Shown here one piece after another: positions 3,354 to 51,724 of a stretch of 64,000 nt of DNA. The stretch spans positions 65,846,001-65,910,000 of the forward strand of contig CM059432.1 in NCBI GenBank assembly GCA_030390025.1, read 5' to 3'. The translations under genes were made by a program, and so were the position numbers. The first letter of the stretch is position 1. Each line of letters starts with the position of its first letter. The DNA comes from Squalus acanthias (taxonomy: Eukaryota). The notes under the pieces are model-generated. The model searched no databases, was not told the DNA's origin, and saw only the letters and a list, made by a program, of their open reading frames with translations.

Positions 3354-3378
3354 GCTAGGACTAGTAATAATCCTTTCA

Positions 3379-17252: not shown

Positions 17253-18095
17253 GGGCTGGATTTTCATTGACCCGTGGAGTCGGGTTTGGAGGCGTGTGGG
17301 GGGTTAAAGTTGCAGATTCGGGGGTCCCGACCCCATCCCACCCCCAACCCGCCTCCATGCCAGTTTCGCTGGCGGCGGGTACCCGACCTGTGCTGGGACC
17401 CGCCTCACCGAGGCGGGAAGGGATTAGTGACAATTAACTGCCTGTTAACAGGTAGTTAACAGGCAGTTTTTTGCCTAATCCCTATTTTAATGGCTGAAAT
17501 GTGGGCTTCCCGACAGGTGCCAACCATGTCAAGTTATCGGGGCGGACCGTGGGTCTGCAGGGGTTGGAGGGGTCGATATGTCCGGTGGGCAGGTGAGTGA
17601 TGGGTGCATGTGTGCAGAGGTAAGTGTGTAAGGTAAGTGCAAAGTGTGGGAAAAAGTTTTACTTACCTTAACTTCCTCCTGCAGGTGTCAGCCCTTCAGT
17701 TCTCGGGAGTCAGAAATCTCACCGGCACAGAAAGCAGAAAGGCCGTGGTGTTGTCAAAAGTTTCAGCCTCTGTTTTCTGTGCTGGAATTATTTCTAACTC
17801 AGCCTGAGAGGAAGGACTCAAGTTAGAAGACAAATTGTCAGTGTTTGACAGCTTCACAGAGCTGTCAAACGCTGATATTTCATCTGTCAAAAGCTCTTGA
17901 CAGATGAAATGTCAATCTGTGACGTCACCTGTTGCCGGGTGGCCCTTAATTGTCCTGCTGAGCTCACTGGGCGGGCTCAACAAGGTCAATCAAGGGAAAA
18001 TACAGTGGGTTGGCCACATCTCGATGGAGAGGGGTCTACAACCTAAAAATTGGGATTCCCGACTCCATCACGTCCCCAGTATCAAAATCCAGCCC
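17253..18095. mobile_element. Harbinger MITE with splice-site cluster and hairpins
   Basis: TIR GGGCTGGATTTT/AAAATCCAGCCC. TSD ATT. End homologous to 635-1384, interior homologous to 43335-45775. Confidence 0.9.
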
Positions 18096-18668: not shown

Positions 18669-19564
18669 GGGGTAAAAATTCAGTTGGTTGCGCCTCCCGT
18701 TAGCGCCTTAAGAGGGCGCTAATGGGGCGCAAAGCCGCTAACGCCCGGGCGCAGCGATGTTTGCGCCGCTCGGGAACTTAACTAGAGATTGTGCGGCGGC
18801 GCTAAAACTTACCGCTGCGACCACCTGCGCGCGCAGATTATGACGTCATTCCATGGTGCAACGCCCTTGTGGCGCCCCGGAGCGGAAATTGAGTGGCGCC
18901 CCCTGCCTTACCGCCTGGCGCATCCAACGACCAGAAGACTGGAACGCTATCAATCGCTGTGGGGCTGGGGGGGGGGGCGCTATTTAAAGGGGGCCTCTTC
19001 CTGTCTTTTATTGTTGGTGGCATTTTTGAACTACGCATTCTGAGAGAGAGAGGGAGAGACTTCTGGAGAGATTCAACGTTGTGTGAAGGAGTTTTGGGTA
19101 CTGAGCAGCACTTTGCAGGTTCATTTTGATTTGCCATTCCTTGTATCGATTTAGCAGAGACTGTGGGAGCTGCACTCTGAGCTCTTTGCCTGGTACTCTC
19201 CATTGTTCTTTCCAGCACATTTGATGTGCAAGTCTCTCCAGGCCGAGATTCAAGGCTGCAATGAACAGGATGTGGATGGAAAGCAAGATTAACCATGCCC
19301 TTTAAGAACTGGCCCGTGCCATTGTGTGTGTGTTCCATTGCTGACTGACATTACATGAGCTTCGCCAGCGCTCTGAGTTAGCGCCTCACTCCTTGGCCTT
19401 TGCGCCTTAAGACAGGTGTGCAGCGCCTGCTTTAGCGCTCCACTCACCTCCCGGGGCGGTAAAAGAGAAGTTTCCAGTCAGTGCCGATAATTAGCGCCAG
19501 GCGCTAATATTTGCGTCCAGACGATATTTGCGCCCCAAATGGGGCGCGACCTAATTTCTACCCC
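18669..19564. mobile_element. Internal-deletion derivative of the autonomous Harbinger family at 38060-42296
   Basis: TIR GGGGTAAAAATT/AATTTCTACCCC. TSD TAA. Left arm matches 38060-~38510, right arm matches ~41935-42296. Confidence 0.92.
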
Positions 19565-25900: not shown

Positions 25901-26310
25901 ACGCTTACACCACGTGCAGCTTGTAAGTCAGAAGAGATTGTGGGATGAGGGGGAAGTGGGATGTGAGAAGGAGGATTAGGTATGATCATACCGTCATCTT
26001 CAATGGTTTCAACCCCACTGCTGGCCACAGGCTCAGTCACAGCCATTCCAATAATGCCAAGCACCGTCTCCTCCATTGGGGTTAGGATGTACAGGCACGC
26101 CTGCCCCTCTCCAGTTAGCTGCTGCTGCCTTCGGTTCTGTGCCTCCTTCTCCTGCAAGAGAGAGGGAAGTGGGCCATTGAGTGTGGTGCAATGTGTTTGG
26201 TTGATGTGGCTGTCATGGATGAATTGCTGGCAGTCTGTGCAAGCTGTGAGATGTGGGTGTGAGACTTGCAGCAGTGGTAAATGTGTGAGATTGAGATGGA
26301 CTAGATAGAG
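22989..26310 (+). mobile_element. Degenerate Harbinger: transposase pseudogene (~23484-24590, +) and Myb exons 2-3 (minus); right end missing
   Basis: GAIDCTH, YPGSSHDAFIL, WLLGNKGY and NVFEQTIG motifs across frameshifts. Myb exon 2 EKEAQNRRQQQLTGEG. Left end GGCCTAGAAATT. Confidence 0.88.
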
Positions 26311-27149
26311 GAGAAGCCAGCATAAATAAAGGCATGTCCCAAGGAAACAGCACCTGACATTTCCATGCATCTCATGCAAGGCCTAAAGATTGCTTTCCAC
26401 AATGTGTTGTCTGTTCCAAAAATACTCCTCAGCCAGGACAAGCCTTCTCTCAACCTTACAGCTCATTCTTTGCAGGTCATGTATACCCATACCACAAGAA
26501 GGCACACCTTCAAAATACAATGTAGAATTGGAACTTTGCCACACTCAAATCTTTCAACACCCTATCACCTCAAGTCATTTTAAAACAAACTAGCTGCATG
26601 ATGCACAAGCAGTTACTTACACCTAGTTTGGCTGCAATGTGTGTCATTGTGCCTCTCAAGCTCCTAAGCTCACAAGACCACTTTTCTACTGGTACAACTA
26701 GATGTTAGCTTGAGGGCTCAATCCCAATTCGAAGAATGGGCTCCCTCGTTAAGCCTCCTTGTGATATGCTCAAGCAGCTCCGGTGGGATCTATGGATCAA
26801 CCTACGTGGGTAATGTAAATAATTCTAACACTAAAAGGCAGCCATTTTAATAAATTCTGTAACTGCAATTTTCTCATGGTAACAATCTGTTATTGTAAAT
26901 CTCTCATTCGAACAAAGTATGTTTATTCAAAATTCACAAACATCAGTTGTTACAAACCACTTATAACACATACTGACAATACAAGTCTCTCATTGCACTC
27001 AGATTATTAGCTTCTCATTAAAAAAAAGGTTACAAACCACTCATTTAATGTTTTATTCAGTGTGCTTACAACTACTTCATTATGAAACCTCTTAAAACAA
27101 ATCTCCCATTATAGCATTATCTTGTTACAGATCTTTTTGTTATCACAAT

Positions 27150-27442
27150 TTTCTCATCCGGCCCCCTTACGCTGTGCAACAGGCTTCCTGTGCCGGTTTG
27201 TACCAGACTTAAACATTTTCAGCGTAATTACCTTGCATTAGGTGGCCAATTAGCCCAAGTTTTCGCCAGCACATTGATTTGTATGAGAGCGTAAAAGACG
27301 CAGCGAAGCCTCTGTGTAGTCGAAACTTGACAGATCGCAAGCTCGGGATTTAACGCATGTGCTTTGGAAATCCCGAACACGCGGTCAGTTTCAAAGGCGA
27401 TATGACGTCGTACACTGTCATACCAACCGCAAATTCAGGGCC
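27150..27442. mobile_element. Right half of a Harbinger MITE
   Basis: Ends CCGCAAATTCAGGGCC|AAT, complementary to the end type at 12770. Confidence 0.55.
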
Positions 27443-27700
27443 AATCTGTTTTAGTGATGTTCGCTGAGGAATAAATATTGGCCAGGACACCGGGGAGAAC
27501 TCCTCTGCTCTAGTGCCATGGGATCTTTTATGTCCAGCTGAGAGGACAGACGTGGCCTCAATTTAACACCTTGTCTGAATTGCGGCACCTCCGACAGTGC
27601 AGCACTCCCTCAGTTTTGCACTGGAGTGTCTGGATTCTGACTTGAACCCACAACTTTCTGACTCAGAGGAGAGAGTGCTAACACTGAGGCACAGCTGACA
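27443..27700 (-). mobile_element. Deu-SINE fragment
   Basis: Matches 8145-8400. Confidence 0.8.
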
Positions 27701-28109
27701 CTGTGTGAGGTGTGGGAAGGCACTTTCAGTGGCTCTATGATGGCATGATGTATGGGAATGCCTCCACATGACTCCAAATGCATAAAATCCCTGCCTCTAC
27801 GTATATTGGACTACAGAACAGCACAAGCATCCTGCTCCCTCAATGCAGGCCCAGTGTAAAACCTGGGGCAAATACAAAGCAGGCACAAGGCCTCTGCACC
27901 AGAGCATTGGAGCTGAATTTCAGTCCCATACAGCATTACAAAATTTCAGTCTCATAATGATCAACTGACGAAGTAATGTTATTTTGGTCATCTTGGTTGA
28001 CAGTCGCTGGCGACTCTGGGACATTTCAGTGCATTGGAAATTCTATAAATGTGTCAGTTGTTGTTAACCAGATCTTTTTGGCAACCTGTAAGCACCAGAA
28101 CAGAAACAT

Positions 28110-28674
28110 CTACAAGGAAATTTTGACTGTAGGCGCGAACTGGCGACGAAGAGTGATGCCTGCTCAGGAGCGGGTAAGCCCAAGGCTCACCCGATATTGG
28201 GCCTCAGGCCTCATTTAAATGAGACCAGTGAATCGACATTGGATTTCGGGCCACTGTGTCACTGGCAGCTGCCCTCAGGTAGATCCTGGGAGAGGGGGAG
28301 AGGATTGGGAAGGGAGGGAAGTGATCAGGAGAGGGGTATACGATCAGGAGGGAGGGGATAATTGGGACCTCTGGTTAGGCTGCATTTAGACCACGTTTTC
28401 CTGAACACTTCTGCCTCAGCGTTGGTGCATTCAGCGCAGCCCATTTTTACAAAAGGGGCCTCAGACAGGTGTGAGGCCCCCTATTTGCATATGCAAAGGT
28501 ACTAACGCCTGATTCACGCGTGGACCCTCGCGCTTCTTTTTCTGCCTTTACCAATATGGTAGGCAGCGCACTTCAGGCACAGAATGTGCATCTTCATGCC
28601 GCCCGTCATATTGGATGCTTTGGCACTCATTTTACGCCTGTAAAACAAGCGCGCCATCAACCAATTTCCAGGCC
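28110..28674. mobile_element. Degenerate Harbinger-type MITE
   Basis: Right end CCAATTTCCAGGCC. GC-rich subterminal blocks. Left end approximate. Confidence 0.45.
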
Positions 28675-29009
28675 TATGTGTCTGCTGAGCAGATCAATAT
28701 CTTAACAACATCAGATACACTGACGAGACTTATAACCCAATTATTGTCACGTTATCTTGTTTCCAAGTCCACTAAGACCATAGAAGTCGTCTGGAATTTA
28801 TTGATGGAAAGCTATTGAAGCAACCATTATAAATGTTTTCAAGAGTCAACTAATTAACTTTCTGGAGAGAGCATCATGACTAGACACTTCAATAAAAAGC
28901 TAGATCTGAAAAAGTTGAAAACCTGATGTTTAATGTTTACTCTTCAGGGCAGTTCTAAAAATGAATTTCTGATGAATACAACACAATCTAAAAATCTCAG
29001 CGAGATCAT

Positions 29010-29134
29010 TTGCATTGATTGCAGTAATTATTGCGGGTGTATACACTTTTTTCCCACTTCACATCGGAGTCGGGGTCCTGACATGAAAACCACCTGACAC
29101 GCCCCAGCCCGCCCCCAATGGCAAAATCGAGCCC
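29010..29134. mobile_element. Isolated right end of the 9272-11970 Harbinger family
   Basis: 29043-29134 is nearly identical to 11880-11970. Confidence 0.8.
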
Positions 29135-29346
29135 TTGGTCTGAAGCTACAGAGAAAGACGGGTAAGTACAAGACTTATAATTAATGCTTGTGTGTAGTAT
29201 AGCAGTTGGTGTGCTGTATCCTGCTTGTGAAGATGTGGTCAGCACAATACAGAAAGCATTGTTGCAAAAATGAACTTCACCATTCTTTCCAACAGAAATA
29301 TGTTTTATATTTGTCCAGAGCATCAGTCAAAAGTGTCAGTTTCTAA

Positions 29347-29851
29347 GGGCCGGATTTTGCAGTGGGTAATGACGGCAAACTACCAGCGTTCGCCATTATT
29401 ACCCCTTTGAATCTAACGCATGCACATCTAAACGCGGAATCCTGTTGCAGTCAGTCATGCGAGAGCCCCAATCTTTGTTTCACTCTCTGTAACATTTTTT
29501 AAATGTCCGGATAAAAGCAGCTTTTCATTTCCTGATTTCCTGTCTGTGAGAATTCTGCAATGCAATTGGCCGCTTCGACAGCTTGTTGATGTCACAGCAA
29601 CATCGCTCTAGGGATTCCCACTACAGAGTGCTGAAATCACTTGAGTGTCGAAAAGGCAAACTTCTCACCACAGAGATCGCGAGATGTAGTGGGAATCCCT
29701 AGAGCCAATCACATTGCAGATTGGGGCTCTCACATGGGGATAAGGTAGAACCTGAAATATCATGAACAAACTTTCTGTTCATGTGATCTCTGTGGGCAGC
29801 TTTCTTCGGGGCGAGCGCCTTTGCTTCACCGCTGACCGCAAATTCCGGACC
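29347..29851. mobile_element. Harbinger MITE (same family as 30851-32360) with internal inverted duplications
   Basis: GGGCCCGGATTTTGC ... GCAAATTCCGGACC. Confidence 0.75.
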
Positions 29852-30850: not shown

Positions 30851-32360
30851 GGCCCGGAATTTGCGGTTGTAATGATGGTGAAACTGTCAGCACACGATGT
30901 CATTACTGTGTAAAACTGACAGCAACTTCTGGCGTCCGCACAGGCGCAGTTAAACGCGGAAATGCAGAAGTTGCTGTAAGTGATACCCTGCTCCTCCACA
31001 GGGTGTGCTGTTGCAGTCTTCGCAGATGCAATCAACACAGAATCAGTGAATTGATGTGAGTTTTTACACACTATTCTCACTGTAAAAAACAATGGCCCTG
31101 AAATTCGCCTCTCCGGCTTGCCACGGGGGTAAGGATCGCGCGCGCACTTACCTACCACGCCTGCCGTTGACCTCTGGGCCCACGGGAACTTCAGCTCCTG
31201 GGCCTGCTCCAAGTGCCGGCGCGCAGTGCTTGCGTGTCCCAGGGGCGTAGTTAGTGCGATGCGTGCCCTGGGATCACGTGGGCCATGGAGAGCCAATGGC
31301 AGCAGACCATCTTTCATTCATAGATTTGACAGGAAGACCTGTCAAATCTATGAATTGAAATCGGCCCCAAAAGAACAGCTAAACTTAAAATATATTTTTT
31401 TTAAACCATCACATTTACAAAATAAATTAACTACTTTAAACAAAAATGTAAGTTTTTGAAAAAATTAAAATACTTTTTAAGAGTGCTAAAAATAAACTTA
31501 CCTTTCTTTAAAGTATCGAAAAAAGATAAACCTGTTGAAATTTTTTTTAAATTATAATTAATTAACCACTTACCTTGTTGAAAACGGGTCCTGCGCCTCC
31601 TTTTTAAAAGCGCAGGTTCTTCAATACTTACCCTCCCGTAGAAACCTGAAAAAAACCCTAAGTTTGCGGCGTGCGCGCAGCCTCTATCGTGCACGCGGTT
31701 CACCTATGAACCGCCCCCTTCACCAGACCGGAAGTTCCGGTTTCCCGCGCATGCGCAGTGCATGCAGGAAACCGGCACTTCAGGACGCCTTACGGGTGAG
31801 TACACAGTGCGTACTCACCCGGCAAGGGCCGAATTTTTGGCCCAATGAAAATGTTAAGCCTTGTTGAATGAGGTGTAACTGAGTTTTTAATGGCGTACTA
31901 AGTGATGATTACTGCTGAACAACTACGCTGGCCCTGAAAAACTATTTTTTATAAGTGTGGAGTCTCATTCCCTCAGAAGAACAATTCAAAATTTCATGAT
32001 TTTTAAAATAATAAAAATTATTATTTTTTTAATGTTTGGTTATGATATTTCAGTTTCTACCTTAATCCCATGTGTATGTCCCAATCTTTATTTTGCTCTC
32101 TGTACAATGATTAAAATGTGAATTATAATCCCTGCTTTTTACTTCCTGCTTTGCTGTCTGTGCGAATTCTTCAATTTGATTGGCTGATCAGCCTGCTTGC
32201 TACCTGCACTGTTGCTGGATGCCACAGAAGGCACCAAATTCAAAGTCACATTGGAATAGAGGAAATCCACGCTCAAGAGCATGCTAAATCTTTGTGGGCA
32301 GCTTTTTTCGAGGTCAGCGGTGAGCGCCGTCCCTTCGCCGCTGACCGCAAAATCCGGGCC
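30851..32360. mobile_element. Harbinger MITE with a nested MITE
   Basis: 17-bp TIR GGCCCGGAATTTGCGGT / ACCGCAAAATCCGGGCC (1 mismatch). TSD AAT. Confidence 0.88.
31094..31843. mobile_element. Nested Harbinger MITE with several hairpins
   Basis: GGCCCTGAAATTCG / CGAATTTTTGGCCC. TSD AAT (31091-31093, 31844-31846). Confidence 0.85.
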
Positions 32361-33419: not shown

Positions 33420-36400
33420 AAGGGGTTGAAGGAGAATCACACAGGGCATTTCTCAAAGGAGAACACACCAATATAGGAGAGAGCAGGCTCCAAGGTTTTC
33501 GGATACTGCTCTGGAGGTCTTGGTGGAGGAAGTCAAAGGGAGGAGAGATGTCCTGTATCCGCAGGGGTTAGGAGGACCTCCAGACACATGCTCAGAAGGC
33601 AGTGGGAGCAGATAGCTGTGGAGATCAATGCGAGGAGTCAAGATCCGAGGACCTGGATGCAGTGCCACAAGAAGTTCAATAACCTCACACGAGTGGTCAA
33701 GGTAAGTGAATGCATCTTCAAATACCAGATCCTACCAACTGCACCAGTAGACTCAGCCACCGCTCAAATCACCACACCCCATCACTCACCCACCAACAAT
33801 CTCTATCAATCAGGCCTCATACCTAACATTCATATGCTTCACCTCACCCTCACACACTTAGCATTGCTACAAGCCTCACACCCACATCTCACAGCTTGCA
33901 CACACTGCCAGCTATTCAACCATGACAGTCACATCAGCCAAACAGATTGTACCACACTCACTGACACACTTCCCTCTCACTTGCAGGACAAGGTGGTGCA
34001 CAACCATAGGCAGCAAGAGCTAACCGGAGGAGGACAAGCACGCCTGCATGTCCTAACCCACATGGAGGAGATGATGCTGGCCATTATTGGAATGGCCATT
34101 GCTGAGGCTGTGGCCAGCGGCAGGGCTGTAACCTTTGAAGATGATGGTGTCCTCATACCTAATTCTCCTTCTCACATCCCACTTCTCCCTCATCCCACAC
34201 TCTCTTCTGATTTACAAGCTGCAGATAGTACTGCACCTCTTACTTTCCCCCACTCCCCGCACCACAACCTTACCCTTGTGCCTTTTTCCTTTCAGATACC
34301 CAAGAGGTGCAACCTGGCCAGGCAGTGGAGGAAAACCAAGAAGAGAGTGATGATGAAGGCGCAGTACCGTCACTTGATTTCACACTTGCTGCCATCAGCT
34401 CAGTTACTAATACTGCGCATATCTTAGAGAATAGGTTACAGGCGGGATCTGAACATGGTGAGACACTGGGCATGAGTGGTCAGGAAGCAAGGATAGTGCA
34501 GGTGCCAGCTCGCTGGAGGGCGAGGTCGCAGACGGTTTTGGCTGCAGAGGACGCAGATGAGGACTTCAATGGGGTAGCCTACAGAAGTACGCTAATGGGT
34601 ATGCACAGAAAAATGCTTGGTGCATTGGCAGGCCTGCCAGAAAGCCTGCATTCAATGACAAGGAGCATGGAGGAGTCCAGCACCAACTTGGCACAGGGCT
34701 TTGCGCAGATCTTGGAGCCCATCCTTTGAAGTATGGAAGTGGTGGCCAACTCTGTTCATGCACTTGTGGACCCAACCATGATGCAGTGTCTGATGGACGA
34801 TGTCACAGCTTCCATTGCAGCACAAGCAGCAACCATCCAACATCTGAGTGCTACAGTGGAAGCTTAGACTTCTGTCATGCAAGGTCAGCTTGCTGCCATG
34901 CAAGCTCAGACTCCTGCGATCATAGCTGCAGTTACCAGTGTTGAAAGGAGCTTGCAGGGTGTCACAGCAGTCCAGCAATCTGTCCTCCAACAGTTTACTA
35001 GTATTATTGAGGTGCCACTGGGGGAGTGGCAGTGGCTCCACAGAGCACGAACCTGCTGTCCTCTCTCAGGAAGATAGCATTCGTCCTCCCACCCCTGCCA
35101 CTCCGCCAGTGCCTGTGCTGTTGCTAGTCAGCTGGCCAGCCCACACTGTTGCCGCCCATGCCGAGATGGTGCAGCCTGCAGCTGGGCCATCTAGGCCCAG
35201 AGCTGCTTGAGGTCGCCTTCCAAGGCCATCTGCAGTCTCCTCCATTGAAAGTCAGCAGCCTTCCACCAGCCTTGCTGCAGCAACTGGGGTAGCACTGCAT
35301 AGGAGCACTAGGACAGGCAAAGGCACCTAGAAGACAGCCACTAAGGGAATGCACAAGGGTGATTGGTTTAAGTTTACATGCAATATGGCATGATTTCATT
35401 TATAAATTTGGTTTGGAATGTTTATTTTGTGGTGGCTTTTATTTTTGCATTGTGGCCAAGCGAACCCTGTGATGCTCAATGACAGAGGAAAGTAAGGTGT
35501 GGGACTGTTAGTGAATGGGGAATTGGGGTTGCAGTTACTGGTATCATACTCGGATGAGTTCTTCATGGACATCCCGGCTGAAAGGGGCTGTCTAGGTTGC
35601 CTCCTCTCTTCCTCTTCCTCCTCCTCCTCCTCATGCTCCTGCTCCTCAGCTGCTTACCGTATAGCTGGTGGCAAGGGCTGCTGCATAACCTCATGATGGC
35701 GAGGTTGTGTAGCATGCAACAGGTCACCACGAATCTTGACACCCGCTCTGCTGAGTACAGTAGGGCTCCTCTAGAGCAGTCCATGGCTTTCATTGTATGC
35801 ATGCTGCGCCATGTGCATGGGTTGCACACCGGAGTCATGAGCCATGTTGTCAGCAGAAAGCCCTTGTCGCCCAGTAGCCATCCTTTGGATTGCCATGGTG
35901 GCTGAAATGCAGCTGGCACAGCAGACTGCCACAGAATGAAGGCATCATGCCTCCTGTCAGGCATTGACCTGCATGATGTGCTGTCTATGTTCACACACCA
36001 GCTGGATGTTGAAGGAGTGGCATAGGGCAGAGTTGACATGCGGCTCCCGCAAAGCAATGTGCGTGCAGTCAATGGCACCCTGCACCATGGGGAAGCCTGC
36101 AATCCTTGTGAAGCCACATGCTCGCTCCGCCTGCTGCTCTCTGGCATGAGAGACTGAAATGTAGTCAACTTTCTTTGAATAGAGAGCCTCAGTGACCTCC
36201 CTTACGCAACAGTAGATGGCAAACTGCGAGATGTTGCAAATATCTCCAGCTCAAGCCTGGAAGGAGCCAGATGCATAAATGTTTGTAGCCACGGTCACCT
36301 TCACAGCCACTGGCAATGCGGTCCTTGCCCTGCTCTGAGCTTGCAGTTGTGGCAGCAGTAGTTGGCAGATTTCAGTGAGGACATCCTTACTGAAGTGGAG

Positions 36401-37057
36401 ACATCTCACACATTGTTCCTCACTGAGGTTCAGGTAGGAACACCCTGGGCGGATATGGCCTCCTGCTTGAGACCTCTTCTCCCCCTCCTCCTCCTCCCTC
36501 TTCCAGCAGCTTGTCCTGCTCTGCATGGCCTCTGTTCATTCTCAAGAATGCCTACTTGTGCACCCATGTCCGGCGGCAAGTGATTTGTACAGAAGCCTTG
36601 AAATCAGCAAAAAGTCATGTGCTGTGGACTTTTGAAACTTGAAACAACTATAGAAAGCACCAAACACTTGCAGAATCGCATCAATAGCCAGAAAGATCAA
36701 CCAGCAACTAACCTGTAAGTAGTTGATGATCCCTTTAAATAGAGCTGGTTGGAGGGGGCGGGGGGGAGTTCTTCCTTTGGCTGAATGCGTGTTCAGCTGT
36801 AGGAGCTTAAGAGAGAGTGTTTGCTGGAGCGTTGAGCTCCAAAATAGCACCGCTGGTGTCAAATCAACGTTGCACACTGATTGACGTCATGATCTGCCTG
36901 CTCTGTAACCTTCCGGTGGACGTTAGCTGCACACGCGCTAATGCCCTTACCAATATAGCGTCCGGCGCGATTCACCCCACAAGTGTGCAAATGCCATTTT
37001 GGTATCCAAACGGCACCCGTAGTGTCCAAACAATGGGCGCTACCGATCCAATTTCGT
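33420..37057 (-). mobile_element. Degenerate Harbinger, inverted relative to 22989-26310: Myb pseudogene on + (exon 1 ends 33701; exons 2 and 3 start 33987 and 34296), transposase pseudogene on minus (~36567-35540)
   Basis: RTWMQCHKKFNNLTRVVK|GTAAGT. DKVVHNHRQQELTGGG. WLLGDKGF. Collinear with 22989-26310. Confidence 0.88.
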
Positions 37058-38368
37058 GCTGTATGACTCTTAACTCTTATCTGAAATGGCCTAACAAATC
37101 ATTCAGTTGTATCAAACCACTAAAAAGAATAACTGCAGCAGTCCAAGAAGAAGGCCCTCCACCTGAAGGGATAATTACTAGTCCTAGCCCTTTTCGGGCT
37201 ACCCCGGATCAGGCGTATTCCCCAGACATTCACCTTCAACTAAAGTTAGAGATAGCCGAATCCTATAAGACACTTAATTGGGTCTAAAGGTCCAGACTAT
37301 CTCTCCCTAAAGGAAAGGAATGACCTGAAGATGTTACCGTCCTCCAGATAGCACTTTTAATAAGTTTAACTAGACTGTAACCTTCCGGATATTATGAGGG
37401 TCCGGAAAACTCCCCCAGAATTCTGAAACTCCTCACCAAAGAGTGTACAGGGATTGAGTTCACGAGTTTGATACAGAAGTACTATGTGAGACAATTCTAA
37501 AAATATATAGATTTATTAAAGAACCGACATGTAGTTAACAGTTGGTGATTCAGTCGCAACATTAACAGTTCAAAATACAAATAGCTTACAATTCTTATTC
37601 TCAGAGATCCTTATTCTCAAATCTTAACTTCGTTACATTTTTACATTTCTACTTATTCTTAATCCAGGATATCCACCAAAATCAAATAACTTTGATTACC
37701 CGAGACTCAAAGAGTTGTAGGCTTTCAGAGCCTGTCTCTGAAGCTGAGAAACGCTTGCCCCTTCCAGCGAATTCTGTCTTCCTATTTGAAAGTTCTATAT
37801 TTTAACCCTTTTTGCAGTGGTATATCCTTTGAAGTTTTCTGCCGATGTAAGCTAATTATCTCCAGTTATATTTCTGTTGACTTCTTTCTATTCTTACTGT
37901 CAGTTCAGCTGTTAGCTTGCTGACTTGTGTCTCTACCTTTAGGTGTTCAGAACTTATCATAAAAAACGGTTATAACAGCTGTATCTATTTGATGCCATTC
38001 TTATGAAGGTCTTCTATTCAATTCTTAAATCACCTCAGCTGGTTGTAAGCAGACTTCATGGGGGAAAATTCAGTTGGTTGCGCCTCCCGTTAGCGCCTTA
38101 AGAGGGCGCTAATGGGGCGCAAAGCAGCTAGCGCCCGGGCGCAGCGATGTTTGCGCCGCTCGCGAACTTAACTAGACATTTTGCGGCGGCGCTAAACTTT
38201 ATCGCCGCGATCTCCTGCGCGCGCAGATTGTGACGTCATATGAGAGTGCAACGCCCTTGTGGCGCCCCGGAGCAGAATTTCAGTGGCGCCCCCATCCTTA
38301 CCGCCTGGCGCATCCAACGACCGGAAGAGTGGAACGCTAACAATCGCTGTGGGGCTGGGGGGGGGCGC

Positions 38369-38376
38369 TATTTAAA
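38369..38376 (+). promoter_or_regulatory. TATA-like box of the transposase promoter (TATTTAAA), with CRE TGACGTCA at 38231-38238
   Basis: TATTTAAAGGG lies upstream of the transposase position in several copies (~18981, ~23307, ~60126). Confidence 0.5.
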
Positions 38377-38584
38377 GGGGGCCTCTTCCTGTCTTTCTCT
38401 GTGGTTGACATTTTTGCACCACTCGTTCTGAGAGAGAGAGAGAGATTCGGAGAGAGAGAAAGAGAGACTTCTGCATTGAGTCAACGCTGTGTGAGGTAGT
38501 TTTGGCTACTCATCCTAACTTCGCTGGTACTTTGGTTTCTGGCCTTCATAACTTTGCTTGCTAAGAGATACGGGGGCTGCACTG

Positions 38585-39600
38585 ATGGGGGGCGTCGTCC
38601 TGCGCCAGCTGAATCGGAGGAGACAGAGATGCAGAGAGAGAGTGGCAATGATGGCCAGATGGAGGAGGGCCAACAGGCGTCTGTACAGGAGAGCTTACCC
38701 TACCAGGGTATATCGTGAACAGCTATCCTACATTCATATGTCTGATGAGCAGTGTCTGCGAAGGCTGCGCTTCAGCAAGGAGGTGGTCACTGAGCTCTGC
38801 CACCTGCTGCAGCCAGATCTGCAGCCTCAACTGAGGTCCAGGACATCTCTGTCGGTGGCAGTGAAGGTCACAGTGGCTCTGAACTTTTATGCTACTGGCT
38901 CATTTCAATCTGCTGTTGGGGACATCGCCAATATCTCCCAGTTTGCGGAGCATTGCTGCATCAGGAAGGTCACAAATGCCCTCTTTAAAAGGAGACGAGA
39001 GTTCATCTCTTTCCCCATGACCCCAGACAAGCAGCAAGAATGCGCTCTGGGCTTTGCGAGGATAGCGGGCTTCCCCATGGTGCAGGGCGCCATTGACTGC
39101 ACGCATGTGGCTTTGCGTGCTCCGCATGAGAATGCCGAGGATTTCCGGAACAGAAAGGGGTTCCATTCCTTGAATGTTCAGTTGGTCTGTGACCACAGAC
39201 AGCTGATACTCGCTGTCAATGCCCATTATCCTGGCAGCTGCCACGATGCTTTCATCCTGTGCCAGACTACTGTGGCAGAACTTTTCGAGGCACCGCATCA
39301 GCCAGTTGGTTGGCTTCTCGGGGACAAGGGGTATCCACTGAGCACCCGGCTGATGACACCGCTCCGTACGCCCAACACCCCTGCTGAGCTGCGGTACAAC
39401 GAGAGCCATCAAGCTACCAGGAACATCGTGGAGCACACAATCGGCGTGCTCAAGCAACGGTTCCGCTGTCTCGACCATTCTGGAAGAGCCCTGCAGTACT
39501 CGCCTGAGCGAGTTTCCAACATCGTAGTTGTGTGCTGCATGCTGCATAACATGGCAATCCTCAGGACCCAGCCAATGCCACCAGGCCTTGGAGCACCACC

Positions 39601-39631
<31 letters not shown>

Positions 39632-39730
39632 GAGGAGGATGATCAGCAGCAGCACCAAGGCGTGAGGGCGGCCCACAATGGTGAAACTGCAAGGGCTGTC
39701 CGTCAGCGGCTGATAGCAAGCCGCTTCTAG
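38585..39730 (+). CDS. Harbinger DDE transposase (HARBI1-like nuclease family), 381 aa
   Basis: Uninterrupted ORF from ATG 38585. Motifs GAIDCTH, NRKGFHSLNVQ, YPGSCHDAFIL, WLLGDKGY, RNIVEHTIGVLKQRF, CCMLHN. Acidic tail. Confidence 0.95.
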
Positions 39731-40041
39731 GCCCCTGCTGTGGAAATGGCTTCTGCCATTGAGAACAGCATGAATGAACCCAACATGCAACCCCTAAGCC
39801 GGCCAAGGCACCAATGATTCCAAACACCAAACATGTATATTTTGAGTACCAAAACTTATTTATTTTACAAACTCTGTGTGTGTCATTTCTTCATGACAAA
39901 CTCATACAAATAAACACAAAAAAACAGTCATTACCATAACTGGTTCTCACAACCTGGAGATCATGTGCAAAACACTCAACAAAAGTTTGACCACGAACCT
40001 CGGCCTTTAATAAAAAAATGACCAGCATTTTGTCACACCTC

Positions 40042-41939
40042 CTACATCGAGGGTGAACTCCTTCCCGTGCGCCCTTCCCCCCTTCTTACCCTACTGCTCC
40101 TCCGCAATGGGACCTCAGTGGCTGCAGCAAGGCTGGTGGAAGGCTGCTGACTGTCAGGCCCTGACAATGCAGATGCCCTTGAGGGACGGCCTCGACCAGT
40201 TCTGGGCCTGGAGGGCCCGGCTGCAGACTGCACCAACTCTGCATGGGCGGCAGCAGTCTGTCCTACAGGCAGTGGCAACTGCAGTGGAGAAGTGACAGTG
40301 GTGGCAGCAGGAATGCTGTCATCTTGAGCGAGGACAGCAACTCCCTGCTCGACCAGCACACTGGCACTCCCACGGGGCAGCACCTCAGCATCCGGAGCAA
40401 TCTGCTGGAGCACAGATTGCTGGCCTGCTGCGGCGCGGTGAGAGCCCCGGGGAAATGTGAACGAACCAGCGAGGATGGCAGCAGACAGTGCTCGCGTGAC
40501 CTCAATCTGAGTCTGCATGAGAGCAGTCTGAGATTGAATTGCAGCACTGAGCTTCAGTGTCGCATCCGCCTGCGCTGCAGCGAAGTGCTCCACACTCCTT
40601 GCCAGTGCTTCAATGCATTCGGGCACCCTACCCACTGCAGCCATGAGCTCAGTGTGCATGCCCACCGCCTGGGTGTTCATTTCCGCGATCAGCCGCTCCT
40701 CCTCTGCGTCCAGTGCAGCAGGACTCGCTGGCATACTCTCCCTCCGGGGAGAAGGCCCCCGAGCTTCCCTACCCCCATCGCGTTGCTGCAGCCCGCTGGG
40801 TCCTGGAGCTTCACCCTCATCAGACCCTTCCCCCCTGCTCCCCTCCAGGGAAGGCATGTTCCCAGTGTCGGCATGGGCTTCCTCGGGAGAGGGTGGCACT
40901 GATGCTCCGGCTTCCTCTTCCTCCTCGGCTGCAGCTTCACTCCCACTGGCAGCTTCAGGGCCCGTCTCCTCAGCTGGTGAATCACCATCTGAAAGCAGGG
41001 AGGTACAAGAGTGGCTTTAGCGTGAGGACAGGGTGGCAGTAAGGGAGGAATAAGTGCAGCGAGTTAGTAAGTTGGATTGAAAGTGTCAAAGGCTGGTGTT
41101 GTGAGGGACAAGTGGAAGGACAGAGGACAAAAAGGTGATGACCTTACCATTGCTGTCCAGAACGGGGTCGGCGTCTCCAGTGGCGACGGGACCGATCACC
41201 CGGCTTGCCACGATCCTGTGGACGCGCTCCTCAAGATCACTGAGGGGTTGCAGCTGAGGCCGCCCTCCACCCGTCCGTTGCTGCTGTCTCCTATTATGCG
41301 CCAGCTTGGCCTGCAAGAAAAAGGACGGCGTCTGAGTAAATATACAGCCATGGTCTTGCCTGATGTGCCTCCCATAGGTGAATAGCCCTTACTGTATACA
41401 GCCATGGTCTTGCCTGATGTGCCTCCCATAGGTGAATAGCCCTTACTGTATACAGCCATGGTCTTGCCTGATGTGCCTCCCATAGGTGAATAGCCCTTAC
41501 TGTATACAGCCATGGTCTTGCCTGATGTGCCTCCCATAGGTGAATAGCCCTTACTGTATGCAAAGTATGGAATGTGTGTGTGTGCTTCATGAAAGGGCCA
41601 TAGGTGTTGGATGAGTGTTGTTAATTGTGGTTTTAAGACCCTCTGGCCATAGAGTGAGGTTGAGATGGAGGGATGGAGAGGTATTGCAAAAAAGCCACTC
41701 ACCCTGACGACCCGAGTGAGGTCGTTGAACTTTTTCCGGCATTGGACATGGGTCCTGGGCACCATGCTCCTGGAGGAGACGCGCTGAGCCACCTCCCTCC
41801 ACACTCTTCTGTAGTCGCGCGGCAAAGGCCTCCTGCCACTCTCTGGGTACAGTATTGGTCTTCGGCGCTCCACCGCGCCAACCAGAGCATCCAAGGCCCG
41901 CTCGGTGAAGTGCTCAGCTCGTTCTCTCACCCTCTCCAT
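40042..41939 (-). CDS. Harbinger Myb/SANT-like DNA-binding protein, 448 aa, 3 exons (41939-41703, 41310-41148, 40988-40042)
   Basis: Canonical GT-AG introns (phase 0, phase 1). 237+163+947=1347 nt joins in frame. MERVRERAEHFTERALDAL...WREVAQRVS...QCRKKFNDL; NRRQQQRTGGG. Confidence 0.88.
41341..41559. repeat. Perfect 54-bp x4 tandem repeat in Myb intron 1
   Basis: TATACAGCCATGGTCTTGCCTGATGTGCCTCCCATAGGTGAATAGCCCTTACTG four times with no spacer. Confidence 0.97.
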
Positions 41940-43334
41940 CCTTGGCTGGAAAATGGATTCACAGGTCTCTCCAGGCCGAGATTCAAGGCTGCAATGAGCA
42001 GGGTGTGGCTGGGGAGCAAGATCGCCCCCCCCTTTAAGAACTGGCCGGCGCCAGTGTGTCTGTGTTCCCTCGCTAACTGGCAGCACCTGTGCTGCGCTCG
42101 CGCTCTGAGTTCGCGCCTCACTCCTCAGCCTTTGCGCCTTAAGACAGGTGTGCAGCGCCTGATTTAGCGCTCCAATCACCTCCCGGTGCGTTAAAAGTGA
42201 AGTTTCCAGTCAGTGGCGATAATTAGCGCCAGGCGCTAATTATTGCGCCCGGACGATATTTGCGCCCCAAACGGGGCGCGACTGAATTTTTCCCCCCATG
42301 TCTCCTAACTGTTCCAAGTTCAACACAAACACACTGTGATTGCTTGGTGCATCTATTGATGTCATATTTACAAAAGTCTTCTGTTTGTATCTTTTTACAA
42401 CATGTAAATTATAAACACTTCAACCGAGTACATGATTGTCTTCCTAGCTACTTCAATTGGTTGTACCAAGAATTATGTCTCCTGTCTCATTTGATGTCAT
42501 ATTTATGAAGGCATATGTTTCTTTAATGTTCTGTGTTTCTGTTTGAAGTGTTAGTTTATAACACTTTAAACTGGGTATAGCTATTGTGTTCTTTCCAAAC
42601 TGCAGACTTCTTGGAAGCACCAACCCTTTGCTTCAATAGGGCCATTGTCTCAGTGTCAACAACCAATTCCCATTTCAAAAGCTTGTCTGGTGTTTACAGC
42701 TTTGTGTTAACAACTCATCTTATTTCAGAAGCCTATATTTACAGCTTTGTGTCGTTGAGGCTTTTAGATTTTTAAACCCAGTTTGTCATGTTTAATAAGG
42801 CTAGAATTCTGTTCATAGGATGGTGTATTTTTCTGAATATGGCTATTCCTTCACACACCACCTTCTTAAGAATGATGAATAAATGCCGGCCTTGCCAGCA
42901 ATGCCCAATTGCCCATATCCTGAGACTGAATAAAGAAAACCACAATGATAAGGATGTCACTGAGCCCACCAGTAATGCTATGTTGCTACAAACCTCAGAG
43001 GTGTGTTACAGCCCCCACTCCAGGTGAAGGCCAGAGATCTCGCAAAAATTATGTAAATGACCGTGAGACTGAAAATCAGCTGGAGTCACTCCTGTCATGC
43101 CAAAGTTCACCCCAATTGCACAAAATTAGAATATCTCGGCTATTACTTTGAACCCAAACTAACTTGGGATAATTAAAATTAACCAATATTATTGCCCTGA
43201 TGTTCTTGCATATCTCACTGAACTGTCTGCAGATCTCCCCTCTATTTCATCTTCACTATTATTTTCTCCTTCCCCCTTCAATATTAGTTTAAACTCTCCT
43301 GCACAGCATTAGTTAGTTGCCCAGCAAGGACATT

Positions 43335-45775
43335 GGGGGCAATTTGTGAATGGAGGCGAGTTGGAGGTGGGACTGCTGCTTGTCGGATTTCAGTCCCGCC
43401 TCCATCGAGTTGTGGCCAACCCATGCTATTTTCCCTTGATTGACCTTGTTAAGCCCGCCCAGCGGGCTTAGCAGGCCAATTAAGGGAAAGCCGATTGCAG
43501 AGCATGTCAATGTATGACGTGTCATCTGTCAAAAATTTTTGACAGATGAATTGTCATCATTTGACAGCTCTGTGAAGCTGTCAAACAGTGACAATCTCTG
43601 CAGTTTGATGAGGTCTTGCATACAAGACCTCATCAACCTTCTTTCTTTTACAAAATTGAGATGTTTGTTGCATCTGAGAATGCAACAGACATCTCTCATC
43701 TGCAACACAGAGGTGCGAGACTCCCCATATAGAAACCGACTGAAGCCTGCAGGAAGAAACAAAGGTAAGTACACTTTTAAAAACACTTAGGACTTACTTC
43801 AGATACTCACCTCTACACTCTTGCACCCATCACTTACCTTCACACCACACTTTTGCACCCCCCCGACCCCCGCAGACCCACTACTCACCTCGCTGAGCTG
43901 GCGGGTTTTGGAGCCGTCGTGATGCCCGCACTTGTGAGGGCAAAAACGGGATAATCCTATTTTTTGCCTGTTAACTCCTTCTCTTCTTAGGCAGTCCCTC
44001 GGAACCGAGGATGACTTGCTTCCACATTAAAAATGAGTTCTCAGGTGACTGATGAGTCCAATGCGGGACCTACAGTCTCTGTCACAGGTGGGCCAGACGG
44101 TGGTTGAAGGGGCGGGTGGGTGGGGTGCTTGGGTTGATGTGTGCTCCTTGCGCTGCTTGCACTTGGCTTCTGCTTGCTCCCGGTGAAGAGGCTCGAGGTG
44201 TTCGGCGCCGTCCCGGATGCTTCTTCTCCACTTTGTCTTGGGCAGGGATTCCCAGGTGTCAGTGGGGATGTTGCACTTTTTCAAGGAGGCTTTGAGGGTG
44301 TCCTTGAAGCATTTCCTCTGCCCACCTGGGGCTCTCTTGCCGTGTCGGAGCTCCAAGTAGAGCGCTTATTTTGGGAGTCTCGTATCGGGCATGTGGATGA
44401 TGTGACCCGTCCATCGGAGCTGATCGAGCGTGGTCAAAGCTTCGATGCTGGGGATGTTGGCCTGAGTGAGAACACTGACGTTGATGCACCTATCCTGCCA
44501 ATGGATTTGCAGAATCTTGCGGAGGCAGCGTTGGTGGTACCTCTCCAGTGCTTTGAGGTGCCTGCTGTACATGGTCCATGTCTCTGAGGCATACAGGAGG
44601 GCGGGTATCACTGCTGCTCTGTAGACCATGAGCTTAGTGCCATGGTTTGAGGTCCTGGTCTTCAAACACTCTCTTCCTCAGGTGACCGAAGGCTGTACTG
44701 GCACACTGAAGGCAGTGTTGGACTTCGTCATCGACGTCTGCCCTGGTTGACAGTAGGCTCCCAAGGTATGGAAAGTGTTCCACGTTGTCCAAGGCCTTGT
44801 CGTGGATTTTGATAATCGGGGGGCAGTACTGTGTGGCGGGGGCAGGTTGGTAGAGGACCTTTGTCTTACGGATGTTTAGTTTTAGGCCTGTGCTCTCGTA
44901 CGCTTCGGTGAAGGTGTTGACGATAGTTTGGAGTTCGACCTCCGAGTGAGCGCAGACTGATCTGTGTGGCTCCTGGGTTGGCAGCTCCCTAGGGAGCTCC
45001 TTTGCCATCCTTGGCCATCCATTGCCATCCTTTGCTCTCTCTCCCCCAGTCTCCTATCTTCTGCTGTATAAGTTCCCCTGGCTCTAACAGTGGGTGCATT
45101 TTATTCCTAACTGCAAGTTGAAGCTGCAAGTTTAAAGTTACCTGAGCCCACTGCCCATCCCCTGACCATGCCTGTTCTTTGTTCTCATCAGTGAGCACTG
45201 GCTCTTCACTTAAACTTAGCTCCCAAATTCCCAGACCTCTCTGCTGTCAAAACTATGCTTCTCCACTGGACTAGTGATCTAGTGACTAGTGGATCGCGAG
45301 TGGAGCTCGGGGCCAGGGATCACGAGAATATCAGTGCTAATTTGATCCTGTGAGAGACAACATCATCCATGTCCGAGGCCGGGACCCAGGAGCGAGGACA
45401 AGCCCAGCAGAGAGGTCAAGGCCCAGGAGTGGCGCAGCGTGGACCAGCAGCGGGGTCAGGGCCCAGGGAAGGTGCAGCACGGGCCAACAGCGAGGTCGGG
45501 AGGACCACAATGCATCCTACAAAATCCAGGCAGAGAGGACCTGCGGGAAGGAGGGAGGAGGACAGTAGCAGTATTTTTGTGTGTGTGTGCTAGGCCGTTC
45601 TAGCAGAGCCTGGTCTCCAATCGCCTGTTAACTACCTGCTAACTGCAACCCGCCTCCTGGGAAGATGGCATGGAGGCGGATTGCGGGCGGGTTTGCCATC
45701 CGCCCCCAAATTCTGTCATTTTCCCGACAGTCCCGCCTCAATATCCGCCTCCTCGGGGCTGAGAAAATTGCCCCC
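43335..45775. mobile_element. Harbinger MITE (relative of 17253-18095, inverted) split by an RTE-derived insertion
   Basis: GGGGGCAATTT / AAATTGCCCCC. Flanks ATT/ATA. Confidence 0.82.
43977..45622 (-). mobile_element. RTE 3' part (43977-~44957) fused to ~665 bp non-coding sequence within one TSD
   Basis: Highly similar to 5456-6440. 11-bp direct repeat GCCTGTTAACT at 43966-43976 and 45623-45633. Confidence 0.8.
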
Positions 45776-47585: not shown

Positions 47586-49737
47586 TACCGTCTCCTTTTG
47601 GTTTGTCGTGGTGGCTCAATTGCTGATGGTACAGCGGACTGCCGCAGAATGAAGGCATCATGACTGCTGCCAAGATACCGAGCATTGACTTGCATGATGT
47701 GCTGAGTATGGTCGCACACCAGCTGGACATTGAGGGAGTGGAATCCCTTCCGGTTGCGGTATATCTCCAAATTGAGATGTGGCGCCACAAAGCGACCTGT
47801 GTGCAGTCAATGGCAGCATCGGGAAGTCTGCTATCCTGCTGAAGCCGCGTGCTCTGGCAAGAGAGAAGGAAATGTATTCGGCTCTCTTTGCCGACAGAGC
47901 TTCATTCACCTCCCTTATACATGAGTGGACAACAACCTGGGAGATGTTATAGATGTCGCCTATTCCAGCCTGAAAGGAGCCCGACGCAAAGAAGTTCAAG
48001 GCCACGGTCACCTTTACAGCTACTGACAATGCTGTCCTCGCCCTCAGTGAGCACCTCCTTAGTAAAATGGAGATGTCGCATGCACCGTTCTTCACTGAGG
48101 TTGAGGTAGAAGAATTGCTCCCTGAGGTCCCTGGGTGGATATGGCCTCCTGCTGAGAGCCCCTCTCCCCCTCCTCCTGCCTTTTCTAGCAGCTTGTCCTG
48201 CTCTGTGTCGCCTCTGCTCATTCTCCCTGTCTTGCTGCAAGCCAAGGGGGATACAAACTACTGCACCAATGTCTGGGAGCAACTGGTCTGAGCAGACCCC
48301 TTGCAAGTCAGTACCAAGTCCTTGAGCACGTGCCACGCCACGCCACGCCACGCCTTGTAGACTTTCGGCAACTTTAAAGAAGTCTAGAAAGCACCAAACA
48401 ATTGTTCAAACTCAGCAACAGTTGGTAGAAATCAATCAGCTTTAGCTGCTTCATCAATGACCTTCCCTCCAACATAAGGTCAGAATAGGGATGTTCGCTG
48501 ATGACTGCACAGTGTTCAGTGCCATTCACAACTCCTCAGATAATGAAGCAGTCCATGCCCGCATGCAACAAGACCTGGACGATGTTCAGGGTTGGGTTGA
48601 TAAGTGGCAGGTAACATTCGAGCCACAGAAGTGCCAGGCAATGACTATCTCCAACAAGCGAGAGTCTAACTACCACCCCTTGACATTCAATGGCATTACC
48701 ATCACCAAATCCCCCACCATCAACATCCTGGGGGTCACCATTGACCAGAAACTTAACTGGACCAACCACATAAATACTGTGGCAACAAGAGCAGGTCAGA
48801 GGCTAGGTATTCTGCAGCGAGTGTCTCACCTCCTGACTCCCCAAAGCCTTTCTACCATCTACAAGGCACAAGTAAAGAGTGTGATGGAATACTCTTCACT
48901 TGCCTGGATGAGTGCAGCTCCAACAACACTCAAGAAGCTCGACACCATCCAGGACAAAGCAGCCCATTTGATTGGCACCCCCTCTACCACCTTAAACATC
49001 CACTACCTCCACCACCGGCGTACTGTGGCTGCAGTGTGTAACATCTACAAGATGCACTGCAGCAACTTGCCAAGGCTTCTTCGGCAGCACCTCCCAAACC
49101 CACGACCTCTTCCATCTAGAAGGACAAAGGCAGCAGACGCATGGGAACACCACCACCTCCAAGTTCTCCTCCAAGTCACACATCATCCTGACTTAGAAAT
49201 ATATCGCCGATCCTTCATTGTCGCTGGGTCAAAATCCTGGAACTCCCTACCTAACAGCACTGTGGGGGTACCTTCACCACACGGACTGCAGCGGTTCAAG
49301 AAGGCGGCTCACCACCACCTTCTCAAGGGCAATTAGAGATGGGCAATATATGCTGGCTTTGCCAGCGACGCCCACATCCCATAAAAAAAACGAATTAAAA
49401 AAAATCAGCAACTAACCTATAAGTAGGTGATGATGTCTTTAAATATTGCTGGTGAGGGGTCCTTCCTGCTGCTGAACACATGCTCAGCTGTGTGAGATTA
49501 AGAGAGGGTATTAGCTCCAGCTTTGACGTCGAAAATGGCACGCTGATTGACTTCATGATCTGCGTACTTTGCATACGTCCAGTGCACGTTCCCAGCGCCG
49601 ACATTAATGCCCTCACCAAAATGGGATCCAGTGCTGCACGCGCCAGAAGTATGCGCACTGCTCGGTAGCCATTTTCAAGCCAAATCAGCACCCATAGCAC
49701 CCAAACTACGGGTGCTACGCAACTGAATTTTAAGCCC
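47586..49737 (-). mobile_element. Harbinger fragment (transposase pseudogene plus one end), split by LINE A
   Basis: YRNRKGFHSLNVQLVCDH...GSSHDAFIL. End CTGAATTTTAAGCCC. Confidence 0.82.
48441..49402 (+). mobile_element. CR1-group LINE family A, 5'-truncated, with an open 281-aa RT C-terminus
   Basis: FADD motif. ORF 48491-49336. TSD AATCAGC (48434-48440, 49403-49409). Confidence 0.9.
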
Positions 49738-49942: not shown

Positions 49943-51724
49943 GGGCTGGATTTTCCGGGGGGTGGGTGGGGGGGGGGGGGGCGGGCGGCAGCAGGTGCGA
50001 TTGGTGGCGGGCAGGGTGGGAAAGTGTTTTTTTTCCCACTTGATCGGGACCACGCTGTGAACCTGCCGCCACACGCCTTTACCAAATGTCGAGTCTGCCA
50101 TCGCTGAGCAGACCTGACAGGCAGTGGCGGGGGAGGCAATTAAAATCATTAGTGGCTTGTTTACAGCCACTTATCAATGGTTTATCCCCAGCTTTTTGGA
50201 TTTGACAGGTCACCCACCGGTTTCCCGCTATGCCGAGACCTCATCTGTGAAGCTGAGGCGGGAGGTCAGTGGCCATTGATTAGCTGATCAGTTGACAGCT
50301 TCAAATGTTAAGTCAAAGCTCCCAGCTGATTGAGATATGTTCTCTTAACCATTAGCTTCTCTAAACTGCATTTCCACTACAGATTCAGGATGCTGCAATT
50401 CTTTACATAAGTCTCCATCCAGTCTGATCTTATTACCTCTCCCACCATTGACAGATCTCTTCTGTCATCTCCACTTCACCTGCCGTCTATTCCATCAGCA
50501 TGGGTGCCCTTTATACTGTCTCACCTTCGTCCTCAGAATCCCACCATGATCAGCCCCAACACCAGCATCACCAGGCACACCAGCAGCACCAACAACAACA
50601 CCAACCTTCTCCGTAATCAACAGATGCTGCACAGGACGCAGGGCATCAGCACCCGACCACATTGCTGCCCGGGAGGCCATGGATGGCTTCACCATGGCTA
50701 GATTTACTTCACTTGATGCTGTACACCCTGGCTACCACATGATACGCCAGGTTGGCACCACCCCACACCAATACCATAAACATCCCTACAATGCCCAAGC
50801 CATTCCTTTCACACTCAGCACCACTGCGGGGGGGTACCGTTATGTCTCACCATTCACTGCAACTCATTAAGCCACTTCCAAAGGTGCACAAAATCTGTCC
50901 ATGAACGCAAAGTGTTGAAAATAAAGGTTTCAATGTTTGACACCACATTAACAGAAACTTTACATAAACATTGCATACAACACCCAAGTGCCTACCCTTG
51001 TGTGTTGTTAGTTGGTATGATTGGACTAGGATGAGGGTGAATGTGAAGGTTGGCTACAGAGATGGAGATGTGATAATGTAGATAGAGCGGGATGGGTGGA
51101 CGTGCAAGGTAAGTTGGTGTGAGTAAGGATGTGCAGGAGTAGGATAGGGAAGGCAGAGTGATGGGGATGTGATGAGAGGCACAGCAGGATGAGGCTGAGT
51201 GTGGCTTTGTACTAACGTTTCGTGATCTACTGAGATTATTGAAAATTTAGCGACACTGCACCCAGGTCCTCCTGACCACATCCCTGCTTGTGTCCTCCTC
51301 TGCAATGTGTAACCAGCCTGTGTTGATCTCCTGGGGAGGTCTCTTCCGCCCATTGGAAGGGAAGAGAACCTCCCTGCATGCTGTGACTCCCTCCATAAGC
51401 ATATGGAGGGAGTCATGGGAGAGCCTGGGTGCTGCCCTGCGACTCGGTGCAGTGATTGTCAGTGTTTGCAGCAGCTCAATGCTGTAGAACACTTGACAGC
51501 ACAAATGTCAAAATAAATTTGGTCATGGTCCCTTTAAGGAAACCGGCTGATGACATGCATCAAATGACGCTTCCTCTAATTGGCCAGCAAATGTGCTGGG
51601 CGGGCTTAACAAGCCCAATCTAGGGAAATTAATTTCAGAGGCCGGGATGGAGCCAGCAGTGGGGTCGGGACCCGCCACTGACATTGTCTGCCATGGACCC
51701 GCCGAGGTTAGTAAAATCACGTCC
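49943..51724. mobile_element. Non-autonomous Harbinger with transposase remnant (+, ~50500-50710) and Myb exon 1 (minus, ~51480-51215)
   Basis: GGGCTGGATTTT ... AAAATCACGTCC. APRLSHDSLHML...EVLFPSNGRKRPP...RRTWVQCR. Confidence 0.8.

Follow-up and report, generated by a model that had tools for sequence, protein, structure and literature searches.

Harbinger transposition requires both proteins of the element (PMC2836001), and vertebrate Harbingers have a 15-bp target preference (PMC2836001). In the papers cited in this text, the vertebrate Harbinger literature consists of one reconstructed system together with expression data (PMC2836001, PMC3016246, PMC9179366), with expression reported in teleosts (PMC9179366) and a share of 9.3% of the genome in the coelacanth (PMC3787270). 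For Harbinger-Snek, 269 intact copies were reported in the sea krait Laticauda colubrina, while in another krait the single intact copy has read coverage over its two genes (PMC8437027). Han et al. 2015 list 88 PIF/Harbinger families with two intact open reading frames (ORFs) (PMC4482050), and intact-looking vertebrate Harbingers are not new. A 2022 survey, which recorded no Harbinger in the elephant shark, called for a look at further cartilaginous fishes (PMC9179366). Here, we describe a two-gene Harbinger element of 4,237 bp, located at positions 38060–42296 of a 64,000-nt stretch of the shark Squalus acanthias (GenBank assembly GCA_030390025.1, contig CM059432.1, positions 65,846,001 to 65,910,000 of the forward strand), referred to as the window. 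The element is a complete member of a shark-type, two-gene Harbinger family of very high abundance. Considering that its start codon and several residues differ from the family majority, this copy is probably slowly decaying and non-mobilising, with frames that would have stayed open by chance.

The family was characterized in public sequencing runs, of which 20 of the 24 listed, from 11 studies, contain the stretch; nine organism labels have shares of sampled words between 0.27 and 0.70. Four runs were compared: two DNA runs of organism A (X1, X2), one DNA run of organism B (X6) and a further run of organism A (X16) that is RNA by guess, since none of the listed runs with the stretch is recorded as RNA. 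Organism J (word share 0.06) and four runs with a share of 0.00 were not used. Contigs matching the stretch amounted to 35,643 in X1, 56,449 in X2, 12,224 in X6 and 1,215 in X16. Although summed contig depth is not a copy number, it reaches ~2e5 to 2e6 inside the element in X1 and X2, compared with 9–25 for single right-flank contigs, and the whole element including both genes is covered about four orders of magnitude above those contigs. The Harbinger family is thus very abundant. It is present in organism B too, with majority bases that agree with those of organism A, and it may comprise thousands to tens of thousands of copies.

The first-pass annotation of this DNA, made from the sequence alone, had described a complete two-gene Harbinger with both frames open inside a long terminal repeat (LTR), and this description holds (Table 1). 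The element is bounded by a CAT triplet on each side. In three of the four runs (X2, X6 and X16), contigs join position 38056 directly to 42297; because these empty paralogous LTR sites skip the element together with one CAT, the CAT duplication that had been proposed is a true target-site duplication. The same joints were considered as evidence of insertion polymorphism and rejected as such, as their depth in X2 (83, against 9 for a single-copy flank contig) lies far above single copy and points to other LTR copies; no contig joining a flank to a terminal inverted repeat (TIR) was found among the contigs listed. Both TIRs are present, as claimed, and start with GGGGG, but they are not identical: the left one is 1 base short relative to the right one and to the left TIR of a related miniature inverted-repeat transposable element (MITE) in the window. 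Matches to the 8-bp motif TTAGCGCC and its variants number 12 in the window, against 0.81 expected, with five at the element's ends, six in its MITE, one at 20129 and none in the element interior. By analogy with the zebrafish system, these subterminal repeats are likely binding sites of the Myb-like protein.

Table 1. Features of the Harbinger element, its host LTR and a related MITE; positions are those of the window.
Feature	Position	Strand	Evidence
Host solo LTR, left part, starts TG	37164..38056	.	90% over 872 nt to 1386-2252
Left target-site duplication CAT	38057..38059	+	sequence comparison; joint of empty sites in contigs
Left TIR, 15 nt, 1 base shorter than right	38060..38074	+	
Subterminal repeats TTAGCGCC and variants, putative Myb-protein binding sites	38078..38195	.	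motif count
Family start codon of transposase, ACG in this copy	38570..38572	+	38571 C>T; five codons upstream of 38585, in frame
DDE transposase frame, 381 aa, ATG 38585 to stop 39730	38585..39730	+	DDE_Tnp_4 (PF13359) E 2e-40
Convergent 3' region, AATAAA on + (39909, 40009) and - (39864)	39864..40014	.	motif match only
Myb-like gene, exon 3	40042..40988	-	spliced frame
Myb-like gene, exon 2	41148..41310	-	spliced frame
54-bp tandem repeat, 4.1 copies, 100% matches, within Myb intron 1	41341..41559	.	
Myb-like gene, exon 1, with Myb/SANT domain and H10 (R in family)	41703..41939	-	Myb_DNA-bind_5 (PF13873) E 2.7e-9
Right subterminal repeats	42131..42266	.	motif count
Right TIR, 16 nt	42281..42296	-	
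Right target-site duplication CAT, then GTCT	42297..42299	+	sequence comparison
Host solo LTR, right part, ends CA	42300..42855	.	sequence comparison
MITE, non-autonomous derivative related to the Harbinger family, TAA duplication	18669..19564	.	84-87% identity to element's ends

The open transposase with DDE motifs had been correctly recognized, and the acidic residues D171, D221, D247 and E283 are all in place. The family, by contrast with this copy, has an in-frame ATG at 38570, with T at 38571 in 100% of the depth in all four runs. Because this codon is ACG here, the copy's transposase would start five codons late; close transposase homologues start with MGA, as the family frame from 38570 would. 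The three-exon Myb/SANT gene, predicted to splice in frame to 448 aa, is likewise borne out, with GT-AG borders at both introns. Relative to family contigs, this copy is 9 bases shorter directly ahead of the Myb stop, as shown by loose ends at 40045/40047 in X1, X6 and X16, and two other Myb fragments in the window have R at Myb position 10. Longer relatives of Myb exon 1 were absent at E 1e-8 among 262 candidates, which is weak evidence. The perfect 54-bp units in Myb intron 1 of this otherwise drifted copy may have arisen by tandem expansion in recent times or may be an effect of the assembly.

The comparison with the family gave 208 difference rows, 40 of which were displayed, 27 of them in the element. 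At six of these 27 sites, all four runs have the other base at no less than 85% of the depth: 38571 (start codon lost), 39041 (R153C), 39521 (F313I), 41911 (Myb R10H) and two further sites, of which one is synonymous and the other non-coding. Differences whose shares were discordant between runs were left aside, such as 40087, at 6% in X1 and 99.7% in X2 (55% of X1 read). An active autonomous element would be expected to match the family majority at functional sites; in all four runs this copy departs from it at the start codon, R153C, F313I and Myb R10H, so that its intactness relative to the family is not confirmed. At a further five transposase positions the family state is not readable from the displayed rows, and the comparison concerns homologues only. 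W255R replaces a residue present in 103 of 112 aligned homologues, and in 34 of 36 when only those with the full set of four acidic residues are counted, and G301R one present in 98 of 113, while H214, C226 and H298 occupy columns whose most frequent residue among homologues is R. The first-pass annotation had named inactivating substitutions relative to the family consensus as grounds for doubting activity; a start codon and three residues that differ from the family are indeed found, along with W255R and G301R at conserved positions, and these changes may be inactivating.

The best-matching structural neighbours of an AlphaFold model of the transposase are DDE transposases, namely piggyBac (Z 10.1, root mean square deviation 4.9, 236 aligned) and Tn5 (Z 9.0). 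Foldseek with this model gave no match at E <=0.001, and a PDB sequence search with the transposase gave low-complexity matches only. As no solved PIF/Harbinger transposase is among the structural matches listed, the role of position 255 is not readable from structure.

For expression, two splice junctions had been put forward to be looked for in RNA reads. The intron-2 joint (40988 to 41148, CT..AC) occurs in X16, in three contigs with a depth of 336, and in none of the three DNA runs, whereas the intron-1 joint (41703/41310) is absent among the 15 joints listed of 70; one X16 contig crosses the intron-1 donor unspliced (41597–41843). Transcription of the family, with splicing at the predicted sites, is therefore likely, since the intron-2 joint is found in the presumed RNA run and not in those of DNA. 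Given that X16 contigs have the family bases at 38571, 39041, 39521 and 41911, the copy described here is not their main source.

Regarding its relatives, the transposase matched 339 proteins at E <=1e-20, of which the top 73 listed all come from sharks or rays. The best identity was 66%; none of the 339 matches exceeds this value, the exact protein is absent from the collection, and no protein of the family itself turned up. In a quick tree (29 of 155 proteins), the transposase falls within an elasmobranch clade beside Pristiophorus models, with a Shimodaira–Hasegawa-like approximate likelihood ratio test (SH-aLRT) support of 98. A short-protein search over transposase residues 140–340 returned 33 matches, the best at 63% and none of this family, and a 33-nt left-end pattern had no matches in metagenome contigs.

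The best runs contain 0.69–0.70 of the sampled 31-letter words, which, provided that the absent words stem from private differences, would correspond to ~1.1–1.2% private divergence, or to 0.5% if the most permissive assumption is made. At the mutation rate of 7e-10 per base per generation reported for the epaulette shark (PMC10587355), a divergence of 0.5–1.1% would amount to 7–16 million generations, a rough estimate in which even a tenfold error would leave about a million generations. Under neutral decay, the probability that both frames are open by chance is 0.025–0.45 at 0.5–1.5% divergence, so a large family is expected to hold many open-frame copies in the absence of selection or activity. 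In a slowly mutating lineage, low divergence and open frames are therefore not readable as activity.

Several observations nevertheless weigh against a decaying copy. Both frames are open with canonical splice sites, the target-site duplication is perfect (CAT/CAT), and the ratio of observed to expected CpG amounts to 1.11 and 0.86 at the element's ends compared with 0.44 in the window. Five codons beyond the lost start, at 38585, a second in-frame Met is available. R at position 255 also occurs in one older copy within the window and in P0006, a Pristiophorus japonicus model, and I at position 313 in 23 of 102 homologues. The transposase departs at just 7 of 140 conserved columns, the second best of 121 proteins (median 16%), although these comparators are mostly decayed copies themselves, and its model has a predicted local distance difference test (pLDDT) score of 89.5. 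Contigs at least 99% identical make up 7,285 of 35,643 in X1 and 12,886 of 56,449 in X2, all of them short. Moreover, the age from word shares is indirect, as contigs drop rare variants, the rate comes from another species and CpG sites decay faster.

In view of the several subfamilies revealed by loose ends, and of a majority base that differs between organisms A and B at some sites, such as 41736, the copy's differences might instead mark a minor, younger and still mobile subfamily, of which this copy would be one recent insertion. Both frames of the copy are open, and a minority lineage of this kind would be swamped in depth sums. We consider this unlikely, since the copy's base has zero depth at 38571 in all four runs and ~1% or less at 41911, even the deepest runs lack ~30% of the words sampled, and R153C and Myb R10H are transitions of the sort expected from CpG decay. 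The first-pass annotation went further in suggesting a naturally active element. For this very copy to function, translation would have to begin at the second Met and the substitutions would have to be tolerated, allowing it to move itself and MITEs. Its catalytic residues are present, its model is confident, the promoter-like, splice and poly(A) motifs show no damage, and one X16 contig matches it at 159 of 159 bases (39860–40018). Against this stand W255R, G301R, the arginine losses and Myb R10H, the shorter Myb C-terminus, the left TIR lacking one base and the family bases in X16 contigs at the four sites named above, which makes a functional copy very unlikely.

Horizontal transfer between species in recent times would remove any implication of age from the presence of the family in several organisms. 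The nine organism labels with 0.27–0.70 of the words (only A and B compared) would be compatible with it, and for sea kraits the transfer of a Harbinger has been documented (PMC8437027). Such a transfer is highly improbable here, considering that the word shares are graded from 0.70 to 0.27, that the transposase lies inside the elasmobranch clade (SH-aLRT 98 in the quick tree of 29 rows) and that empty sites of the same host LTR occur in organism B too, which fits shared ancestry. It is barely conceivable that the two open frames represent a domesticated gene pair that serves the host in the manner of HARBI1 and NAIF1, even though the homologues are named 'putative nuclease HARBI1' in their sources. 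Domesticated genes of that type are conserved single copies without transposon ends, whereas this locus has TIRs and a target duplication, interrupts an LTR and belongs to a very large family, and no protein above 66% identity turned up among the 339 matches.

A slowly decaying copy of an abundant family is thus the preferred explanation. By analogy with zebrafish Harbinger3_DR, the Myb-like protein of the family would bind the subterminal repeats and mediate both nuclear import of the transposase and its recruitment to the element ends. Excised by the transposase, the element would integrate at a preferred site that has GTCT after it, with duplication of 3 bp. Before the related species split, amplification had likely brought the family to a copy number in the thousands or tens of thousands. 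That some unaltered, spliced full-length family copies still transpose in a shark, with the copy described here as their near-intact marker, appears rather unlikely.

The host of the insertion is a solo LTR (37164–42855) with TG...CA ends and a 4-bp duplication at 37160–37163 and 42856–42859. A second, longer solo LTR copy (262–3378) has the same ends and a 4-bp duplication of its own, so both complete copies in the window show the TG...CA ends and 4–6-bp duplication that characterize a solo LTR. The left part of the host LTR lacks ~1.1 kb found in this second copy. Identity between the two LTR copies is 90% (872 nt), 87% (71 nt) and 71% (368 nt) in three blocks. The flanks of the second copy match 48785–49378, overlapping a reverse-transcriptase frame. 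The Harbinger insertion had been regarded as young on account of 113 LTR bases identical to another copy. The identical run is real and in fact spans 114 nt (42743–42856 against 63952–63839, a third, partial copy at the window's end), but identity falls to 93% over 157 nt once the adjoining part is included, and it is 71–90% to the complete copy. Zero differences in 113 nt are compatible with up to 2.6% divergence. A subfamily match between LTR copies gives no date for a later Harbinger insertion, and 114 bases identical to one paralogue do not make the element young.

With respect to target choice, an unrelated 750-bp TIR element (635–1384) is inserted in the second LTR copy, two bases from the site homologous to the Harbinger insertion, and both 635–1384 and 38057–42299 show a 3-bp duplication followed by GTCT. 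GTCT follows the duplication in three of the seven TIR pairs of the window, namely the Harbinger element, its MITE and the 750-bp element; two of the seven (23044–29405 and 31094–31843) are possible chance pairings. GTCT matches the right half of the Harbinger3_DR target AAACACCWGGTCTTT (PMC3016246). Insertion-free paralogous LTR copies in X1 and X2 show CA, TG or CG at 38057–38058, the pattern of CpG decay.

Elsewhere in the same 64 kb, decayed Harbinger transposase or Myb fragments of other families occur at 23032–26298, 33840–37018, 47594–48306, 13404–13703, 11265–11894, 20529–20753 and 51226–51441. Further short TIR elements with 3-bp duplications (ATT and AAT) are located at 17253–18095, whose TIR also occurs in 635–1384, and at 30851–32360. 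Two 990-bp copies of another repeat (5454–6440 and 43975–44957) share 93% identity. In the right flank (42878–43215), X2 has no differences in 338 nt while X1, under the same organism label, has 6 in 337, which is high for a slowly mutating shark.

These results document a large two-gene Harbinger family in elasmobranchs, a finding of modest weight as it stands. Were some copies mobile, they would provide a natural vertebrate Harbinger in which two-protein transposition and target choice could be studied with no reconstruction needed. In the literature covered, which leaves subscription journals and Repbase outside, there was no description of the family and no mobility assay of a natural vertebrate Harbinger. 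In the Squalomix preprint, no passage deals with DNA transposons or PIF, and PMC9392472 and PMC13668399 contributed nothing on shark elements.

The element is a PIF/Harbinger in the broad sense, as it combines a transposase of DDE_Tnp_4 type, a separate Myb/SANT gene, a 3-bp duplication and short TIRs starting with G or A, the last being a published trait of the group (PMC4482050). Its finer placement is less simple. The duplications are CAT in this copy and TAA in the related MITE, two sites only, while TWA defines the narrow PIF/Harbinger group of Han et al. 2015. NuwaI elements share TIRs starting with GGG and two ORFs with Myb/SANT, but have a CWG duplication, seen neither here nor in the MITE. 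The CAT duplication thus fits neither the TWA nor the CWG (NuwaI) group of that study (PMC4482050).

Among described systems, the reconstructed zebrafish Harbinger3_DR resembles the shark element in its two proteins (a DDE transposase plus one that is Myb-like), its 3-bp duplication and its extended target preference (PMC2836001, PMC3016246), and GTCT follows the duplication here as it does in the published target (PMC3016246). It differs in having CWG as its duplication, and the shark element belongs to an elasmobranch clade and is a genomic copy known from sequence alone. LatiHarb1 and the other coelacanth Harbingers, likened here by description, are also abundant in a slowly evolving vertebrate, with expression reported, and belong to a different lineage (PMC3787270, PMC9179366). 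Harbinger-Snek offers a parallel in its massive vertebrate expansion, two-gene open-frame copies, short derivatives, RNA reads over coding regions and suspected activity (PMC8437027). However, Snek arrived by horizontal transfer within 15–25 million years and makes up 8–12% of the genome (PMC8437027), whereas the shark family appears to be vertically inherited. The closest relatives are the elasmobranch 'putative nuclease HARBI1' models, such as P0002 and P0006 of Pristiophorus japonicus, which belong to the same transposase clade with 63–66% identity.

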